A stretch of DNA of 60,273 nt, counting the filler, from Nitrospinae bacterium RIFCSPLOWO2_12_FULL_45_22 (GTDB taxonomy: Bacteria; 2-12-FULL-45-22), in assembly GCA_001803565.1 (NCBI GenBank). It is 9 parts of 9 records of this genome, joined end to end, with 100 filler letters (N's around TTAATTAATTAA, not from the genome) between each part and the next. Parts side by side here need not be neighbours in the genome. Positions count along the whole stretch, not along the records: positions 10,790 to 15,811 come from MHDQ01000195.1; 8 more parts are not named here. One strand, given 5' to 3'. A program made the translations under genes and the position numbers. How positions within the stretch are numbered: position 1 is the stretch's first letter; each line of letters starts with the position of its first letter. Shown piece after piece: positions 5,186-15,811 of this stretch. The notes under the pieces are model-generated. The model was given only the letters and a program-made list of their open reading frames with translations, ran no database searches and was not told the DNA's origin.

Positions 5186-5305
5186 ACGGAGAGATTTTAT
5201 TCGCCGTTATAAAAATAACAAATATATTCCCATGAATGGACTTTCAGGCATGCCTATTGTTGAAAGTTATACCAAAAAGTTTAATAGGGTATTCAAAACG
5301 AGAAA
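5163..5305 (+). pseudogene. Truncated HicA-like toxin remnant
   Basis: Start MSRWTPCKRRDFIRR overlaps the hicB end and resembles HicA N-termini, then the sequence loses similarity. Confidence 0.5.
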
Positions 5306-5405
5306 NNNNNNNNNNNNNNNNNNNNNNNNNNNNNNNNNNNNNNNNNNNNTTAATTAATTAANNNNNNNNNNNNNNNNNNNNNNNNNNNNNNNNNNNNNNN
5401 NNNNN
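5306..5405. other. Artificial contig linker with six-frame stop; also at 10690-10789, 15812-15911, 31084-31183, 36581-36680, 42303-42402, 47410-47509, 54079-54178
   Basis: Identical 100-bp N-TTAATTAATTAA-N blocks that truncate ORFs at many of the joins. Confidence 0.97.
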
Positions 5406-5784
5406 ATGATTGGGAAATGGAAAAATAGCGAAACGGCTCATAAGCTGTAATGGGGGATTAAAGGCGCCACAAAGAAACCTATCTGGTAGTAAAGGGACAC
5501 TGGATGGAGGGTCAAAATAACCAGTATAGCAATAAGCAGGAATCCGATTTTCGCCAATTCCGGCAATCATAAACCCAATAGTACATAGAGACTACATCGC
5601 CTCTTCAAATGTTCAAATAGCGGAATTCCGGGAACTTGGGCGATGGAGATTATTATATTCCTGATTATCGTTTTTCAGTGGAAATTCCGGGGTAAAAAAT
5701 GGAAGCTGCTCTTGACAGTAAGCCTCCATATAGGTTAACTTATTTCTCTATATTTTAAAAGAGTTAAAAGAGGAGGAATTACAA

Positions 5785-6111
5785 ATGCCGAAACCGAAGC
5801 GCCACATCGTTATCTGTACCAACACCCGTGCCCCCGGGCATCCAAAAGGTTCATGCGGAGAAAAAGGTGCACAGAATGTTGTAATGAAATTTGCTGAAGA
5901 GCTGGAGAAAAGGGGTTTATTCGGCAGCGTTGTTCTTAGCGGATCGACCTGTGTCGGTGTGTGCAGTGCAGGTCCGATAGTAATTGTTTATCCTGATGCT
6001 GTATGGTATCAGGGGGTGAAGCCTGAAAATGTTAATGAAATTTTAGAACAACATATCCTGAATGGAAAACCGGTAGAAAGGTTGGTAGTTCCGGATAGTG
6101 CATGGGGATAA
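5785..6111 (+). CDS. Thioredoxin-like [2Fe-2S] ferredoxin
   Basis: VICTN...GSC...TCVGVCSAGPIVIVYPDAVWY; GGAGG RBS. Confidence 0.92.
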   Translation: MPKPKRHIVICTNTRAPGHPKGSCGEKGAQNVVMKFAEELEKRGLFGSVVLSGSTCVGVCSAGPIVIVYPDAVWYQGVKPENVNEILEQHILNGKPVERLVVPDSAWG

Positions 6112-6869
6112 TGAAAGTCCTGTTTCTCGGCTCCGGTACTTCAACAGGTGTACCTGTAATAGGTTGTAAATGTGCAGTTTGCAGTTCAGATGAACCCAGG
6201 AATAAGAGGACACGGTCATCAATACTTATAACTACTGGTGATAAATATATACTGGTTGACACTACGACGGATTTAAGATTCCAGGCTTTGGCAAACAGTA
6301 TAGAAAGGGTAGATGCGGTCCTTTTTACACATGCTCATGCAGACCACATACATGGTATAGACGACCTTCGCAGCTTTAATCACATCCAGGGTAAGCCTAT
6401 CCCATGTTACGGCAGTTATGATACCATGGAGAGTATACGGCATAAATTCAGTTATATATTTAATGGTTCAGCCAGGAGTGATTGGATACCGAGGCTTGAG
6501 ATTAATATAATCAGCAGTGAATTTATTCTGTACGGACTTACGATAATGCCGTTAAAGATTTTTCATGGTGAAATAACCATATTCGGGTACAGGATAAATG
6601 ATGTCGCCTACCTTACAGACTGCAGTGGAATACCTGATGACACAAAAGAATCACTGCAGGGTACTAAACTCCTTATTCTTGATGCAACACGTTATCAGCC
6701 TCACCCCAAACACTATGGTCTTGCACAGGCCATTGTAGTAATAGAGGAGCTAAAGCCGGAGAGGGCGATCCTGACACACCTTTCCCATACATTTGAGCAT
6801 AATAAAGTGAATAGTGAGCTTCCGTCAGGCATTGAACTGGCGTATGATGGGATGGAAGTTAGTTACTAA
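6111..6869 (+). CDS. Metallo-beta-lactamase-fold hydrolase (PhnP/YycJ-like)
   Basis: LGSGTSTGVP, CxCxxC, THAHADHIHG; start placed at ATG 6111, coupled to the ferredoxin stop. Confidence 0.9.
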   Translation: MKVLFLGSGTSTGVPVIGCKCAVCSSDEPRNKRTRSSILITTGDKYILVDTTTDLRFQALANSIERVDAVLFTHAHADHIHGIDDLRSFNHIQGKPIPCYGSYDTMESIRHKFSYIFNGSARSDWIPRLEINIISSEFILYGLTIMPLKIFHGEITIFGYRINDVAYLTDCSGIPDDTKESLQGTKLLILDATRYQPHPKHYGLAQAIVVIEELKPERAILTHLSHTFEHNKVNSELPSGIELAYDGMEVSY

Positions 6870-10789: not shown

Positions 10790-10865
10790 TTGAACTACCG
10801 GGGTGAACGGATAACTCCCCGGACGGGACTTTAACCCGTAAGAATAAACAAATGTTACTGCGTAC
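10790..10865 (-). mobile_element. Probable 5' end (domain I start) of a group II intron, cut by the contig end
   Basis: Minus strand GTACGCAGTAAC...CGGGTTAAAGTCCCGTCCGGGGAG...CCCCGGTAG: GUGYG-like start and GGG-TTAAAGT-CCC hairpin typical of domain I; no RT gene visible. Confidence 0.55.
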
Positions 10866-10969
10866 GGACACCATACTTAATTATTGACTCAGTGTTGAAA
10901 AACGGTCAAGATTCCCCAAGATACCACAAAAGGAAAGCGAAGATTCCTAAAATTAAGTTTAGTGTCCCC
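10866..10969. repeat. REP-like inverted repeat GGACAC..ACTTAATT / AATTAAGT..GTGTCCCC
   Basis: Imperfect inverted arms; single arms recur near 11570, 27340 and 31213. Confidence 0.6.
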
Positions 10970-10994
10970 AGAATTTGTTAAAATGGAGGAAATA

Positions 10995-11556
10995 ATGATC
11001 AATGCCGATTTTGTTCGTTTATGGGCAGCAAAATATCCCAAAGATTATGATACACAATGTTACGAACCTTATATTCAAGAAGCTCGCTCTGTTGATATAC
11101 AAGCTTTGAGAAAATTAACTGAATGGAAAAATGTAAGCAGGAACGTACAACCTATGAAATTATGGAAAACCCATGAAGTAGCATTTCAGTATTTCATACA
11201 TAACCTAAAAGACTACTTAAAAGAAAATGGTTCAGCAAAACTTCGTCTAGATTTCAAAGATCGTGCACCTGTATGGTCTGTTTTCTGGCATCACGTGCTT
11301 TACAATATACCTATTTTCGATGTTTACACTCACATGGCATATCACTTCAGCGCCACAGGAGAGATGCCGACAAAAAAAAGCGAAAATATCAGCACCAGGT
11401 CACTGGTCACTCTATGATCGATATGTCATATGGTTTCACCATACATTTGAAGCAGTAAAAGCCGAATTACATTCTTTGACAGAAAGAGAATTAGACCACG
11501 CTCTTGTATGTTGGGGTGAAGCACAGAACAAGTCAAGCAAGAACCTATGTTTTTGA
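10995..11556 (+). pseudogene. Frameshifted hypothetical gene, possibly a helical DNA-glycosylase-like protein
   Basis: ORFs 10962-11417 and 11263-11556 join into one protein if the A8 tract at 11372-11379 is A7; ends RELDHALVCWG. Confidence 0.6.
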
Positions 11557-11627
11557 GAATACAAATTTTGGGGACACGTACTTAATTCTCTATGAATTAA
11601 AAATTCAGATAAAGGGGGTGCACTAAT

Positions 11628-12170
11628 ATGAAGTATCGTAACATAATGTCCATGTTGGTATTATCATTTATAATTGTTTCGTTATGCATTTCTTGTGCAC
11701 AGCCCCAGATGAAATCATACGATATGCTAGTAGGGTCGAATTATCAAAATATGCAATCAAGGTATAGGGAGCCAATAAACCCTCAAAACATTGCAATGCA
11801 AATCAAACAAGAAAAAGATATATATAGCAAAGAATATCTATTAGATGCAGTGGATGTTATTGGTAAATGTGATAAATTCTTAAATACTCCCAAATATGAA
11901 ATGTTTTCGGTTTCGTCTGAAATAAATACAGCTTTTAAAAAGCTTAAAATTAATCATGCCCAATATGCCAATTCCGTTCTTAATAAATATTTATCAGAAG
12001 TAATTACTAAAATTTCAACTATATGCGACAATGCAAATTATGTCGATGCTCAGAATTCAAGACCCGGCAGTCAAAAAGATTATGCTGGAGCTATACATAA
12101 ATTAGATGAAATTGGCATTTTGTTAGAAGAAATCAAACCATTAATTTCAGGAATTAATTCTGGACTATAA
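11628..12170 (+). CDS. Hypothetical lipoprotein
   Basis: Signal peptide ending LCISC (lipobox-like); RBS present. Confidence 0.7.
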   Translation: MKYRNIMSMLVLSFIIVSLCISCAQPQMKSYDMLVGSNYQNMQSRYREPINPQNIAMQIKQEKDIYSKEYLLDAVDVIGKCDKFLNTPKYEMFSVSSEINTAFKKLKINHAQYANSVLNKYLSEVITKISTICDNANYVDAQNSRPGSQKDYAGAIHKLDEIGILLEEIKPLISGINSGL

Positions 12171-12498
12171 ACACAAACCAAGGGGGTCTTTACAGGCGGT
12201 CGGAGAAGTTTCGTTCCCGGACAGCCTGTTTATTCTTGGAAGATCGAAAGGAAAGGATCACATCTTAAAAAATAAATATTGATATTTTCTATTGCGTTAT
12301 TATAGTGCTTTCTTACCAATTATTTAAGAATTAAGATGTGACCCTTACTCTGCCCCGAAATAGGTTTGTAGTTTTTTCAGATTTGATAATGAGGAGAGGG
12401 AGATTCTCTATGGAGGGATTTTTATTACAGGAAACAGTGTTGTTTTATCAATAACGCAAGTATGCACTAGAAGGTTCTGAGATTAGTATATATTTCCG

Positions 12499-12594
12499 GT
12501 ATAACGATAGAGTTCACCTGACGCCAACACTACAGGGCACAAACCTTTGAAAAACCACACGCTGTTGGCGGTCAAGTGTAGCGATTTGTTATGT
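12499..12594 (-). mobile_element. Integron attC site (cassette 3)
   Basis: Minus strand ACATAAC-aaatcgctacacttgaccgccaaca...tgttggcgtcaggtgaactctatc-GTTATAC, imperfect palindrome. Confidence 0.85.
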
Positions 12595-12643
12595 GGCCAC
12601 CTTTCAAATAGACCCCTAATGGCACCTAAATATGTTTGCCTAT

Positions 12644-12967
12644 TCAGGGCTTCAGGAAAGCGACAGCCAAGGAGCATAGCGAAATAAACAATGCTACTAT
12701 GGACATCCACATAGAAATTCTCCACCTTCTGTCCGATTTATTTTCATTTATTGTTTTTGCTATTAAGGCACCCATACAAGTATTCGCTTCCCACCAAGTC
12801 TCGTTGAGCTGATTATGCAGCTCTTTTACTTTTGCAAAATCCTTCCTATTTTCGGCTTGTTCTCGTATTAATAGTCCAATTTTCTGCCCTAGATTTTCAA
12901 CCCTCCTTTTCTCCTCACAGTCTGGGAAATTGGCTAGGTCTGGCAAAAAAGCAGGTTGGTTAGACAT
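12644..12967 (-). CDS. Cassette-borne hypothetical protein with C-terminal TM helix
   Basis: Start moved to MSNQPAF because the longer ORF runs through an attC; hydrophobic tail SMWMSIVALFISLCSLAVAF. Confidence 0.7.
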   Translation of the reverse strand: MSNQPAFLPDLANFPDCEEKRRVENLGQKIGLLIREQAENRKDFAKVKELHNQLNETWWEANTCMGALIAKTINENKSDRRWRISMWMSIVALFISLCSLAVAFLKP

Positions 12968-13004
12968 TGTATTGTTCCTTCTCAAATTTTCATGCTGTGA
13001 TGCC

Positions 13005-13099
13005 ACATAACGGGCAAGGTCACTTGCGCTGCCAATGACCCCTTGCTGCCCGTCAAGGCCGCAGACGTTCTCGGCGTCAAGTGAACCGCCTAGTTCGGC
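13005..13099 (-). mobile_element. Integron attC site (cassette 2)
   Basis: GCCGAAC-taggcggttcacttgacgc...gcgcaagtgaccttgccc-GTTATGT; R'' complements the GTTCGGC that opens this cassette. Confidence 0.85.
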
Positions 13100-13118
13100 A
13101 ATTTTCTGTATATGAAAT

Positions 13119-13246
13119 TGGCGGGGCGTGGGGGAATTGAACCCCCAGCGCTCACTCCCATATTTTAAGGGTATTATTTTGGGAAACTTACCTCCTCCCG
13201 CAGTGATGGGTATCACCCAGACCGCCCCAGAAGCGCTGTCCCCGCC
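13119..13246 (-). ncRNA. tRNA-like structured RNA candidate
   Basis: 3' end GGGGG-TTCAATT-CCCCC-ACGCCCC-G-CCA (T-arm, acceptor strand, CCA); 5' GGCGGGG and CAGCGCT pair with 3' CCCCGCC and AGCGCTG; no anticodon arm recognised. Confidence 0.5.
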
Positions 13247-13436
13247 GCTACGCACATCATCAAGATAGTTGAAACCATAATGCTTGCCTCCATTTTGATG
13301 TTCACAGTTACAAACAACGACATAGAGGTGACGATTTCAACTGAGAGAGCGCAGAGATTCCCCAAGAAAATACCCAAATAAGGGCTATTCTATCTTCAAT
13401 TTCATATAAATTTTAATTACCGTCTACAAGTATAAG

Positions 13437-14219
13437 TCATTTCAAACAGTTATACGTTTTACTATATAGAAACGTCCCTTCTCTGCTAGGGTAGCCATGG
13501 TAGAGCACATTTTCACGATCCGTGAATGAAGTTGCCCAGAACACAGAGTGGAACAAGTCGTAACCCGTGGTATTAAGTAAAGCCTTCCGTGCATCCTCTG
13601 CGCTGCCGAAACCATAAGCATCATATAAAACGAGAAAAATTCTCGGACACTGAGCTGGAACTCCTTTGTTTTCAAGTTTCATTCGTTTCTTAGTCACAGC
13701 CTCCTGGATAAGCCCTTGAAGTTCGTTGTGAATTTCACCTTCCCATTTTGCTTCAGGTACTTTACCTAGACCAACGGCAGCACCAGTGGCAAATAACTTT
13801 TGGATACTCAAGTGCCCTTGCTTTTCATCCAACAGCAAGGTTTCTACTGTGGATTCTTCTGAGCCAGTATCTCGAATAAACAAGAGAGCGTTCTTACAAA
13901 GTTCACGCCATTCTGCAGTATTTTGGCGCGGAAGGTTCGGGTGCCTTTTTACGTGTAACCAATATGTGCCAATCAAGCACCCTTCATCGGTGGCGCTCTT
14001 ATTCACTACATCTTTGAAAGTTGTACAGGCCGCATGATACGCCTGTTCATTGACAATGCTTGTGACTTCTACTGCATATCTTTGACCATCAAGATCGATC
14101 CAAAAATCGGGAGGGTCGTTTGGTTCCCGATGAACTTTAACATCCTGGTATCCACAATAATGTTTCAGTTTGTGTGCCAAAGAATCAACACAGACGAGTT
14201 CCTCATCAATACGATTCAT
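13437..14219 (-). CDS. Cassette-borne hypothetical protein, probable PD-(D/E)xK nuclease fold
   Basis: EPNDPPDFWIDLDGQRYAVEVT (PD...ExT variant); AGGAG RBS. Confidence 0.65.
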   Translation of the reverse strand: MNRIDEELVCVDSLAHKLKHYCGYQDVKVHREPNDPPDFWIDLDGQRYAVEVTSIVNEQAYHAACTTFKDVVNKSATDEGCLIGTYWLHVKRHPNLPRQNTAEWRELCKNALLFIRDTGSEESTVETLLLDEKQGHLSIQKLFATGAAVGLGKVPEAKWEGEIHNELQGLIQEAVTKKRMKLENKGVPAQCPRIFLVLYDAYGFGSAEDARKALLNTTGYDLFHSVFWATSFTDRENVLYHGYPSREGTFLYSKTYNCLK

Positions 14220-14251
14220 CTAGTTCTCCTTTTTGTTACTTCGGATCCCAT

Positions 14252-14323
14252 GCCGAACGCTGGAGCTGAGACGCGGGAAACGCGCCAGCGTTTTCCCGTC
14301 GATTCTCCAGCGACTTGTTAGCC
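14252..14323 (-). mobile_element. Integron attC site (cassette 1)
   Basis: GGCTAAC-aagtcgctggagaatcgacgggaaaacgc...gcgtttcccgcgtctcagctccagc-GTTCGGC; the upstream gene's TAA lies in R''. Confidence 0.9.
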
Positions 14324-14968
14324 CTTAGACCTAAACACCGGCCTGTTGAGAATGCCGTGAAGTGTGCCCTTACCGGAGATGACCTCTCTACAAGTCCTCT
14401 CAATATCGTCTACGATCTTGTCCAGCCGAGGATTGATGGGGTCTTCCTCCTGTAAACCTTCCCAGAACACTGCCTCATGTTTTTCAACACTTCTTTGATG
14501 CTGCTCCCATTGTTGCTCGATTCTGAAGTTTTCGCGTGCCCATAGCCTGGCAAGCATTCTTGCCGAGACAATTATCTCGCTAACAATCCTCCGCAAATCA
14601 TCAAAAGGCTTTGCTTTGTCTTTTCCAATTTGAGCCATGAAACGATACCGCATGGCATGCAACCTATTAAAAAGTTCCTGGTGATCGTTGTACCGTTTAA
14701 ACACAACACTTGCGTTCTTTCGAGCCTCGTAAGAAGTCTTAGACTCATGTTCACCTTTTTCAATAGACTCAGTTTCGCTGGAATAACTTGCCGGGTGTCG
14801 AATATGCCGGATCGCATCTCCCGCCTCATAGAAGAGAGCCAGGGTCTCCTCAGCGAGCTCAATCTGCCTTCTTCCCCTGTGCTCTCGTCTCCATGAATCA
14901 ATGCCGTAGATAGCAACCCAGGTTCCGATAAGAACTGATGCATCTCGTAGTGTTCCAATCCAGTCCAT
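14318..14968 (-). CDS. Cassette-borne hypothetical protein with N-terminal TM helix
   Basis: 216-aa ORF filling the cassette; N-terminal VLIGTWVAIYGIDSWRRE followed by a helical domain. Confidence 0.75.
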   Translation of the reverse strand: MDWIGTLRDASVLIGTWVAIYGIDSWRREHRGRRQIELAEETLALFYEAGDAIRHIRHPASYSSETESIEKGEHESKTSYEARKNASVVFKRYNDHQELFNRLHAMRYRFMAQIGKDKAKPFDDLRRIVSEIIVSARMLARLWARENFRIEQQWEQHQRSVEKHEAVFWEGLQEEDPINPRLDKIVDDIERTCREVISGKGTLHGILNRPVFRSKG

Positions 14969-14984
14969 ACGTACTCCAAAGAGG

Positions 14985-15025
14985 GGCTAACATTGATTAG
15001 ATTGATCCGCATAATATGCGGAATA
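14985..15025 (-). mobile_element. attI-like first recombination site of the array
   Basis: GTTAGCC core (14991-14985) complements GGCTAAC of attC1 and is not preceded by an attC hairpin; small TCCGCATATTATGCGGA palindrome upstream. Confidence 0.55.
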
Positions 15026-15530
15026 CAGGTATTTTGCCCATATAACATGCCTTTGATATGGCAAATACTATCGTGATAATTACTCCAGACACTGCCACTT
15101 GTGTCTCTTTGCACTTGTTATCATGTCGTCTTATACGGATCAGCATAAAATCCCCTTGTTCCATTTGATCTAATGACAATAAGTCTGCTCCGTGCGGCTG
15201 TTGTAATGACGCGAGGATGATAGGAAATTGTTTTTTCTTTAAAGAGGATGATAATACAAAAATGAAGAAGATTGCAAGTTCTTTTTAGTTTTTTCTGAGG
15301 AAGGAACGGGAGCGAATCTCTCCTTGCTGGGAAAAAATAGGGGGTCGCGTCTTGATTCTTGAATTTTAACTAACGCGAATCTGCCTCCTGACCGATCCCC
15401 CTGTCACGAACTCCCTGATGAGGGATGGAACCCTCGCCTCGTATCCGCCTGCCCCCGCTTCCACCAGCCGCTCAAGTTCAATCCGTTTGTGGTGGATAAC
15501 AGGGATAGATATTGACATCTGGAGAGAAAG

Positions 15531-15811
15531 TTGATTACATTACACAAACCTCATTCCCCTTTTAAAAAGGGAGAAGATGCTATTTTTACGATTTTTCAGC
15601 AGGGTGATTATGACGCTATCTGTAGTGATGACAAGAGATTTGTAAAAAGGTTACGCTTTTTTAATATTCCGTATATAACCCCTGCGGTATTTATTGCAAT
15701 TTTATTTAAAAATGGCAAATTAACAATACCTGAGGCTATGGAAAAACTGGATTCCTTGTCACCGTTTGTCAGTGATGAAGAATACAGCGCAATTAAAGCA
15801 ATTTTAGGAAG
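15531..15811 (+). pseudogene. PIN-like toxin fragment
   Basis: GEDAIF...AICSDDKRF...PYITP resembles the C-terminal half of a PIN domain; N-terminus missing. Confidence 0.5.

Follow-up and report, generated by a model that had tools for sequence, protein, structure and literature searches.

A tRNA-shaped RNA with an encoded CCA end in an integron gene cassette

The RNA, its leader and the evidence for a discrete molecule

We analyzed a 60,273-nucleotide stretch of DNA (hereafter, the window) from Nitrospinae bacterium RIFCSPLOWO2_12_FULL_45_22 (GenBank assembly GCA_001803565.1), which consists of nine contigs of one metagenome-assembled genome (MAG) joined by runs of N; genes on opposite sides of such a run are not neighbors. 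One of these contigs (C195, MHDQ01000195.1, positions 10790-15811, 5022 bp), provisionally placed by binning in the host MAG of a groundwater bacterium, carries an integron cassette array. Our subject is a 110-nucleotide (nt) RNA with the shape of a tRNA, located in one cassette of this array downstream of a gene for a 260-amino acid (aa) protein. An earlier note, made from the sequence, had claimed a tRNA-like RNA with a CCA end at this place. The RNA and the small open reading frame (ORF) that overlaps its 5' end comprise the following features, where P1 and P2 denote two helices of the precursor and MFE its minimum free energy fold:

13387..13416, minus strand: promoter-like site after the stop codon of the protein gene and upstream of the mini-ORF; weak, 9/12 match to the consensus
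13291-13287, minus strand: GGAGG ribosome-binding site (RBS), 8 nt upstream of the ATG
13278-13213, minus strand: 21-codon hydrophobic mini-ORF, overlapping the first 16 nt of the RNA
13232..13246, minus strand: anti-acceptor strands inside the mini-ORF (P1 5' strand 13246-13240, P2 5' strand 13238-13232), present in the precursor MFE
13246-13240, minus strand: alternative 5' partner GGCGGGG (P1 5' strand), pairing with 13126-13120
13238-13232 with 13152-13146, minus strand: P2, a palindromic helix of 7 bp
13119..13228, minus strand: tRNA-shaped RNA, 110 nt, delimited by the ends of a head-to-tail contig, relaxed ARAGORN and folds
13228-13222, minus strand: acceptor 5' strand GGGGCGG, six Watson-Crick pairs and one G.A mismatch (G7.A66)
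two bases after the acceptor 5' strand, minus strand: linker
13219-13207, minus strand: D-position hairpin, 5 bp with a 3-nt loop
13206-13202 with 13156-13152, minus strand: anticodon-position stem, 5 bp, with a 45-nt branched insert in place of the 7-nt loop
13199-13181, minus strand: insert hairpin 1, with a 7-nt loop lacking U33 (G at position 33)
13171-13157, minus strand: insert hairpin 2
between the anticodon-position stem and the T arm, minus strand: variable region, 5 nt
13146-13130, minus strand: T arm, five G-C pairs, with a loop that fits the T-loop consensus (UUCRANY; G53-C61 closing)
13129-13123, minus strand: acceptor 3' strand, 7 nt
13122, minus strand: discriminator G73
13121-13119, minus strand: encoded CCA

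The acceptor/T-arm half of a tRNA is intact in this RNA, which has no D loop (G18G19) and no anticodon loop, and its arms are separated by linkers of 7, 9 and 10 nt, compared with 0–1 nt in tRNAs. The perfect T arm followed by a 7-nt acceptor strand, a G and CCA, as claimed by the earlier note, was found at 13146-13119 on the minus strand, and the two possible 5' partners (from 13228 and from 13246), the 7-bp helix and the hairpin of 5 bp with a 3-nt loop were recovered on the same strand. The statement that there is no anticodon arm stood for the loop, the 7 nt of which are replaced by the 45-nt branched insert, but not for the stem, which is present with 5 bp at the anticodon position. The signature composed of the T arm, 7 nt, any nucleotide and CCA occurs once in the whole window and in none of 300 stretches simulated with an order-1 Markov model, so that a chance origin of this signature is excluded. 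Folded as a 110-mer, the RNA reaches -42.2 kcal/mol in the tRNA register, within 0.8 kcal/mol of the MFE of -43.0 kcal/mol. A precursor of 201 nt reaches -68.7 kcal/mol when P1 and P2 form and -58.6 kcal/mol in the tRNA register, a difference of 10 kcal/mol in favor of P1 and P2.

The 21-codon hydrophobic ORF with a GGAGG RBS that had been reported to overlap the 5' end of the RNA is indeed present, and the RNA begins inside codon 17 of this ORF, 13 nt before the stop codon. The region contains two promoter-like sites, compared with 0.8 expected by chance, which is weak evidence, and the window shows none on the opposite strand. The leader upstream of the mini-ORF is linked by an 18-nt inverted repeat (83% complementary; 13169-13186 with 13358-13375) to the interior of the RNA, where the repeat spans the 3' strand of insert hairpin 1 to the 5' strand of insert hairpin 2. 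This repeat might represent a further long-range pairing or a target site; duplex prediction between leader and RNA (RNAduplex) yielded only sprawling, uninterpretable duplexes.

The existence of the molecule was addressed by comparing four public sequencing runs over positions 12900-14400, namely, the DNA runs X3 and X13, and the runs X19 and X20, which come from one sample and have METATRANSCRIPTOMIC in the library field. Only two pieces of this region are present in X19/X20. The first is a 244-nt contig with a depth of 2.8, covering 14130-14373 (the start of the protein gene and the upstream attC site, attC B). The second is a 140-nt contig with a depth of 16.7, about 6-fold higher, covering only 13228-13119; the flanks of this unit have zero depth, and the uncovered parts in these runs are not evidence of absence. 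The first 72 letters of the 140-nt contig correspond to 13190 to 13119 and the last 68 letters to 13228 to 13161, such that A13119 is joined straight to G13228, with no ambiguous bases at the joint (microhomology 0). The first 30 letters are the same as the last 30, that is, 140 = 110 + 30, a closed path of 31-letter words, a word length that is documented for the Logan index and that we assumed to hold for the Logan contigs as well. In the DNA runs X3 and X13, the locus is single copy and the joint between 13119 and 13228 is absent.

The ends of this contig coincide with the proposed 5' partner at 13228 and with the CCA end at 13119, accompanied by U at -1, G1-C72, G73 and CCA, and they are the ends that the earlier note had predicted for its tRNA-like RNA. 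Because the contig ends are the predicted tRNA ends, our conclusion is that there exists a discrete molecule of 110 nt that has tRNA-type ends and was joined head to tail, as seen in one sample and in contigs only. The earlier proposal also depended on there being a transcript, and the 140-nt contig of the metatranscriptomic-labeled runs fills this place.

The checks with ARAGORN and Rfam that had been suggested for this RNA gave no call at standard stringency: ARAGORN with default settings found 0 tRNA or tmRNA genes in the whole window, and nothing matched an Rfam family at the gathering scores. In the E-value mode of the Rfam search, the tmRNA model (RF00023) matched only the 17-nt T arm, with 13.5–16.3 bits compared to a gathering score of 47, and the tRNA model (RF00005) showed no match to the RNA even at E-values up to 10; by these searches, the RNA belongs to no Rfam family. 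With relaxed settings (-i -ps80, intron allowed), ARAGORN returned a cloverleaf whose limits are exactly 13228 and 13119 and whose anticodon loop begins with a 38-nt insert, and the tmRNA mode (-m) returned nothing.

Three candidate identities were rejected. A standard bacterial tRNA is inconsistent with the lack of a default ARAGORN or Rfam call, of a D loop and of a 7-nt anticodon loop with U33; the canonical tRNA features that are present include the 5-bp T stem and T loop, the 7-bp acceptor with one mismatch, G73, CCA, and ends at +1 and A76. A tmRNA is inconsistent with G3-C70 and G73 in place of G3.U70 and A73, the lack of a tag frame and of pseudoknots, and the length of 110 nt. The resemblance to the tRNA-like domain of tmRNA that had been pointed out earlier thus holds for the topology and fails for the alanine identity pair, the A discriminator and the tag frame, all of which are absent. 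An att-site scar of a host tRNA was rejected for the assembled part of the host MAG (85% complete, 321 contigs), in which the nearest of 38 tRNA and tmRNA genes differs from the 3' half of the RNA at 6 positions; the 3' segment is therefore not identical to a host tRNA 3' end, the finding that would have turned the earlier reading into a scar.

The host MAG encodes a type-A RNase P RNA (329 bits) and its own tmRNA, and most of its tRNA genes encode CCA, as read from their listed 3' ends. Among its tRNA genes are two identical tRNA-Thr(CGT) genes located 60 nt apart on contig C254, a cluster of five tRNA genes on contig C207, and a gene for tRNA-Sec.

The cassette, its protein gene and a second copy of the RNA

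The array in which the RNA resides contains three integron attC-like sites, each an imperfect hairpin bounded by AAC...GTT, which delimit the cassette as follows:

14257 to 13005, minus strand: cassette 2, comprising the 260-aa gene (14219-13437), a 337-nt spacer and attC A
13437..14219, minus strand: gene for the 260-aa protein of an uncharacterized family, with a predicted PD-(D/E)xK-like fold
14252..14323, minus strand: attC site B, closing the upstream cassette; inverse core 14323-14317, core GTTCGGC 14258-14252
13005..13099, minus strand: attC site A, closing cassette 2; inverse core GCCGAAC 13099-13093, core GTTATGT 13011-13005
12499..12594, minus strand: attC site C, closing the next cassette (107-aa gene 12967-12644)

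Folded as single-stranded DNA, attC B reaches -23.8 kcal/mol (z-score -5.8), which none of 200 shuffles equaled. The rule for cassettes is obeyed, in that the six bases after G/TT of one site exactly complement the inverse core of the next site, and the inverse core is complementary to the start of its own cassette at 7/7 positions in both testable cassettes (those closed by attC A and attC C). The longer arm lies on the 5' side of the minus strand in 3/3 sites, so that the minus strand would be the top strand, the same strand as that of the three genes. Contigs of runs X13 and X3 turn unlike C195 at 14256, 14320/14321, 13047 and 13089 (in X13, at 14256 and 14321 in attC B and at 13047 and 13089 in attC A), as cassette exchange should give, with the same cassette found next to other neighbors.

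The spacer from the stop codon of the gene (13437) to attC (13099) is 337 nt long, compared with 0 and about 49 nt in the neighboring cassettes, which bears out the earlier remark on an unusually long gap of about 340 bp, and the CCA end of the RNA lies 19 nt from attC A. Cassette 2, with the protein gene and the RNA, is found in three metagenome contigs at 99–100% identity, and the cassette is present in twenty public runs, all of them groundwater or soil metagenomes, with no listed run recorded as RNA and X19/X20 listed with a small share. The copies differ in length only by 3 nt, inserted or deleted at 13044 in the loop region of attC A, and the sole base change inside the RNA is at 13212, in the 3-nt loop of the D-like hairpin.

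According to a near-identical longer contig (L004), genes for MazE, UPF0175, ParE and Phd belong to the array as well; no integron integrase was seen in the 5022-bp contig or in 6.8 kb of L004. The neighboring cassettes encode a 216-aa protein (14318-14968) and a 107-aa protein (12644-12967) without Pfam or PADLOC matches, and the latter ends with a hydrophobic tail. At 15531-15811 (752-1048 in L004), a 98-aa ORF without a Pfam match is followed by a UPF0175-family gene, a combination that looks like a PIN-type toxin-antitoxin pair, the PIN reading having been made by eye. Just past the cassette that follows the RNA, L004 carries a DDE_Tnp_1_4 transposase gene in three ORFs (5249-6607, minus strand), a decayed insertion sequence at the array edge.

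The 260-aa protein belongs to an uncharacterized family of at least 112 homologues from many phyla. It has no Pfam match, and PADLOC returned no match for the five proteins examined. The invariant residues of the family include PPD...E.TS, K178 and YDA. An AlphaFold2 (AF2) model (pLDDT 86.4) retrieved nothing from the PDB with Foldseek at E <= 0.001. VIA-align gave a Z of 8.3 to the PaqCI restriction enzyme, 7.3–6.2 to four CdiA-CT toxins, and about 8.5–5 to many PD-(D/E)xK nucleases, including Hjc, VRR-NUC, NucS-type, Card1 and Can2, Z values below 8 being common for this tool. In the motif, D38 and E51 are invariant, T53 is found where the ExK lysine is expected, and the invariant K178 lies elsewhere. 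The earlier description of the protein as a putative nuclease is reasonable but unproven, given alignment with PD-(D/E)xK folds at Z values common for the tool, no Foldseek match, and a threonine in place of the ExK lysine.

The combination of a nuclease with a structured RNA as one module, which the earlier note had envisaged, fared worse. Among 96 loci with a homologous protein, the RNA was found only in its own contig and two 99%-identical copies, and it is present in 0/52 non-identical homologue loci that contain the full gene and at least 369 nt downstream; these counts exclude the 14 closest homologues (P0002-P0015, 60–75% identity). No neighbor of the protein family is conserved in 60 loci, the largest shared neighbor family being found in 7, and a second genome with the RNA, G360, has no homologue of the protein. 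Homologous loci thus lack the RNA, and functional coupling to the nuclease is not supported. The suggestion that the two travel as one cassette is correct for the three contigs with 99–100% identity and applies to this cassette only. Because the RNA is absent from the 52 homologue loci, it is, as judged from these comparisons, an independent passenger module and not a dedicated partner of the nuclease. The simple attC finder that we applied to the homologue loci missed the known site in L003 and L004, and we draw nothing from it on the cassette status of the homologues.

The second copy was identified in a pattern search of 400 other genomes allowing up to 3 mismatches, which produced one match, in contig C71 of the unrelated genome G360 (locus L099). 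This copy has a GGAG RBS, an ATG at the same distance and a 40-codon hydrophobic ORF, with a V..GTAL.G core common to both peptides, which are 21 and 40 aa long and agree at 9/21 positions. It contains the same P1 and P2 5' strands in the ORF and the strand before the T hairpin, with 25/27 bases identical over the T hairpin and the 3' strand; the interior of the RNA is about half identical between the two copies. Folded alone, both adopt the same outer structure, with a 7-bp P1 that connects the ORF to the 3' end, a 5–7-bp P2 inside it, and a T-like hairpin. By eye, a 5-bp hairpin with a 3–4-nt loop is found at the D position in both, with entirely different letters (estimated chance, about 0.06). 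ARAGORN found no tRNA in the G360 copy, one promoter-like site there lies on the opposite strand, upstream of the ORF, and a peptide search with the 40-aa ORF matched only its own cluster. The copy is located between an RHH gene and a HicB gene, beside housekeeping genes, and is absent from six other genomes of its phylum that were compared, which fits a mobile element.

Further searches extended the family no further. The six other genomes of the order and phylum of G360 contained only tRNA-Ser-like ends (by eye), and the same kind of ends appeared in one genome only of the nine behind the homologue loci. The 300 genomes of the phylum of G407 produced one match, a real tRNA-Lys that differs in the acceptor strand. 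Viral contigs gave 0 matches, plasmids (distant blastn) only three 32-nt chance matches, and the host genome together with 100 loci (blastn-short) no further copy. Among the compared genomes, one belongs to the same order as the host and all others listed share only the domain.

Proposed maturation of the RNA and competing explanations

The explanation that we favor, and to which we give slightly better than even chances as a whole, is that the 3' third of the cassette is a separate small gene for a tRNA mimic that is matured by RNase P and gated by its leader ORF. This gene would consist of the promoter-like site, the RBS, the 21-codon leader ORF and the overlapping 110-nt RNA. RNase P substrates are characterized by an acceptor/T-arm stack, a T loop, an RCCA tail and U-1/G+1. 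Because the RNA combines U-1, G1-C72, a 7+5 acceptor/T-arm stack, a canonical T loop and an encoded GCCA tail, processing by RNase P appears plausible, and both ends would be made by the tRNA machinery, with RNase P cutting before G13228 and 3' trimming stopping at the encoded CCA.

In the untranslated precursor, as folding suggests, the P1 and P2 strands in the leader ORF would pair with the 3' acceptor strand and with the region before the T arm. Given that these 5' strands lie inside the mini-ORF and that this fold is 10 kcal/mol better, translation would free the tRNA fold: ribosomes on the leader ORF would open P1 and P2, allowing the tRNA fold to form and maturation to proceed, with the cut falling in codon 17. 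The lack of a usable anticodon loop or D loop makes a mimic more likely than a decoder, and the mature RNA could act as a decoy or regulator of a factor that binds tRNAs, possibly one of the toxins encoded in the array, which is rich in toxin-antitoxin genes. This function as a tRNA mimic is a guess; toxin-antitoxin genes are found around both copies (MazE, UPF0175, ParE and Phd in the array, RHH and HicB beside the G360 copy).

Several observations weigh against this explanation. The evidence for the RNA comes from one sample and from assembled contigs rather than reads, contigs give neither strand nor level, and X19/X20 are, despite their library field, flagged 'RNA? (probably DNA)'. The head-to-tail joint itself needs explaining and could reflect circularization in the cell, self-ligation, template switching during library preparation or a tandem DNA copy. 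The MFE z-scores (-1.97, -1.20 and -1.12) are unremarkable. In the comparison of copies, 54/54 cells of the 18 pairs of P1, P2 and the T hairpin can pair, but 16/18 pairs are invariant, with one compensatory change from U-A to A-U and one G-U change, and the comparative structure score was matched by 179/500 shuffles, such that the covariation that the earlier note had asked about amounts to weak support. Moreover, the P1 and P2 5' strands may be conserved for the sake of the peptide and not of RNA pairing; 2/7 base changes in these strands are synonymous. In the G360 copy, the acceptor of the tRNA register forms 5/7 pairs and CCA is not encoded; the best-shared features are therefore the precursor fold and the T hairpin, and the full tRNA shape may not be the conserved feature. 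Finally, the family is rare, with one further member in about 715 other genomes that were pattern-searched and two distinct members in all.

Among the alternatives, the RNA could be the product of a decaying tRNA gene, that is, a pseudogene with a ~38–45-nt anticodon-loop insertion and a degenerate D arm that was captured by a cassette and is still processed but functionless. Such an origin would account for the ARAGORN call being obtained only at lowered thresholds, as a tRNA with an insert, for the G.A mismatch at pair 7-66, for the missing D and anticodon loops, and for the rarity of the family (the single further member in ~715 genomes); pseudogene-like irregular tRNAs near mobile elements are described in passages of Mukai et al. 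2017 (PMC5389517). However, no similar 3' half exists among the 38 host genes, the nearest having 6 mismatches, and none was found within 2 mismatches in the ~715 genomes, except for the tRNA-Lys with its different acceptor strand. The T hairpin, the 3' strand, P1 and P2, the RBS and the ORF start have been kept in unrelated genomes while the interior drifted, which points to selection, and the RNA depth is 6-fold above that of the neighboring transcript piece. On balance, we regard decay as unlikely, but as an explanation to be taken seriously.

A different division of roles, to which we likewise give a minor chance, would make the mini-ORF the real gene and the tRNA-like fold its cis-acting 3' element, with a membrane peptide controlled by pairing and by an RNase P cut that leaves a non-stop mRNA. 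The RBS, the ATG and a hydrophobic peptide with the ...V..GTAL.G core are kept in both copies, the 5' end of the RNA is inside codon 17, the P1 and P2 strands are in the coding region, and both loci lie among toxin-antitoxin genes. The peptide could be a toxin of type I or otherwise; a type I system would require, besides such a small hydrophobic ORF, an antisense or overlapping RNA antitoxin, and a promoter-like site on the opposite strand is seen only in the G360 copy. This explanation sits less well with peptides of 21 and 40 aa that share only 9/21 positions, with a peptide search that returned only its own cluster, and with the lack, in the window, of an antisense promoter-like site, and the best-conserved block, the T hairpin with the 3' strand, is non-coding here.

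Our favored explanation of a leader-gated tRNA mimic has a bolder form, namely, a mobile, translation-gated RNA antidote that would be freed by leader translation, matured by RNase P and present as a circle or with a free CCA, and would soak up a tRNA-targeting toxin or enzyme of the neighboring cassettes, protecting the host or the array. In this elaborated form, we consider the proposal quite improbable.

Two further alternatives appear still more doubtful. In the first, the head-to-tail contig is DNA, and the 110-bp unit is tandemly repeated about six times in that sample. The flag on X19/X20 is compatible with DNA, the depth ratio of 16.7 to 2.8 fits about six copies, and low-depth DNA gives patchy contigs, as in X13. 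Conversely, the library field reads METATRANSCRIPTOMIC, the contigs contain no branches that lead into or out of such an array, and the locus is single copy in the two DNA runs and the three metagenome contigs; furthermore, it would be remarkable for a junction without microhomology to lie exactly between U-1 and G+1 and after CCA, unless the repeat was made from processed RNA.

The second is the two-part system of the earlier note, in which the 260-aa product of the same cassette would be a PD-(D/E)xK protein that cuts tRNAs, with the RNA as its antitoxin, decoy or substrate mimic. The two share one cassette in three contigs, and the protein model aligns with PD-(D/E)xK nucleases, including the four CdiA-CT toxins (Z 7.3–6.2); some CdiA-CT toxins are tRNases. 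Nevertheless, the RNA is missing from all 52 homologue loci, its other copy is in a genome without the protein, and the protein family, with no conserved partner in 60 loci, is unlike a toxin that needs an antidote; Z values of 6–8 are common for the tool, and the ExK lysine is a threonine.

Least credible is a working irregular tRNA, for instance, a missense or nonsense suppressor of the allo-tRNA type charged by an anticodon-blind synthetase: G73, the long D stem with a tiny loop, the extra arms, the toxin-antitoxin neighborhood, the canonical T arm, CCA and mature ends recall allo-tRNAs, and hairpin 13199-13181 has a 7-nt loop, but the branch is 7/5 rather than 8/4 or 9/3, that loop lacks U33, the 7-, 9- and 10-nt linkers are far from the 0–1 nt of tRNAs, no Rfam tRNA match was obtained up to E 10, and four strings from the ends of the RNA had 0 matches in the table of Mukai et al.

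Relation to known RNAs and implications

The nearest published parallels are the irregular tRNAs and allo-tRNAs, which, according to passages of Mukai et al. 2017 (PMC5389517) and of a review (PMC7609411), come from soil and sediment metagenomes, often lie beside toxin-antitoxin genes and transposon remnants, and have been seen in metatranscriptomes; the same passages describe many irregular tRNAs as inactive in translation and suspected to be regulatory (PMC5389517). Like them, the RNA described here has G73, an extended D stem capped by a tiny loop, additional structural elements (extra loops or five-stem junctions in the published RNAs) and toxin-antitoxin genes nearby. In contrast, the acceptor/T branch of allo-tRNAs, as presented in those passages (PMC5389517), has 12 bp split 8/4 or 9/3, and their anticodon loop has the normal 7 nt; our RNA has a 7/5 branch with a T stem of 5 bp, mismatches appear when its acceptor is lengthened to 8 or 9 pairs, and the branched 45-nt insert takes the place of the loop. 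No sequence in the supplementary table of that article shares the ends of the RNA (four strings, 0 matches; PMC5389517). The word 'integron' occurs 0 times in the article, which describes no leader ORF overlapping the 5' end either.

Like the tRNA-like domain of tmRNA (RF00023), the RNA has a CCA acceptor stem and a canonical T arm, its D region is reduced, and a long helix takes the position of the anticodon stem; it is set apart from that domain by G3-C70 and G73, a total length of 110 nt without pseudoknots, and the lack of a tag frame ending in a stop codon. It is also reminiscent of mascRNA, which RNase P cuts out of the MALAT1 3' end: in both cases, a longer transcript contains a tRNA-shaped fold that would yield a small stable RNA, ending with CCA and not involved in decoding. 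The mascRNA model (RF01684) produced a weak local match (13.4 bits, E 2.1; gathering score 42.5) to the T arm and acceptor, but mascRNA is eukaryotic and unrelated in sequence, whereas the RNA reported here overlaps a leader ORF on a mobile bacterial cassette.

Within integrons, ORF-less or RNA-bearing cassettes have been described, in the portions of the literature accessible to us, as carrying promoters or antisense small RNAs and not tRNA-shaped RNAs (PMC6557892, PMC8876359). The cassette examined here is similar to these in providing a non-protein function within the bounds of attC sites, and different in that the RNA shares the cassette with a protein gene. A full-text search found no paper that joins integron, gene cassette and tRNA-like.

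Integron cassettes are usually regarded as carrying protein genes, and most of the long non-coding stretches in them lack an explanation. The finding reported here is real and more than a scar, with the structural reading backed by independent data: a cassette also carries an RNA that is apparently expressed and processed at its ends in the manner of a tRNA. The little-studied irregular tRNA-like RNAs in the vicinity of toxin-antitoxin genes thereby gain the integron as a new vehicle, as well as a new shape, in which a 7/5 tRNA body is combined with a branched anticodon arm and a leader ORF that overlaps its 5' end. The locus offers a testable substrate for the competition between RNase P and translation on one transcript and for the circularization of tRNA-like RNAs in bacteria. 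If the RNA is indeed a mimic or decoy, it would provide a horizontally mobile means to tune or block tRNA-directed enzymes, and, were the antidote proposal to prove true, integron cassettes could carry and spread tRNA mimics, and the RNA would be an antidote of a kind not yet described.

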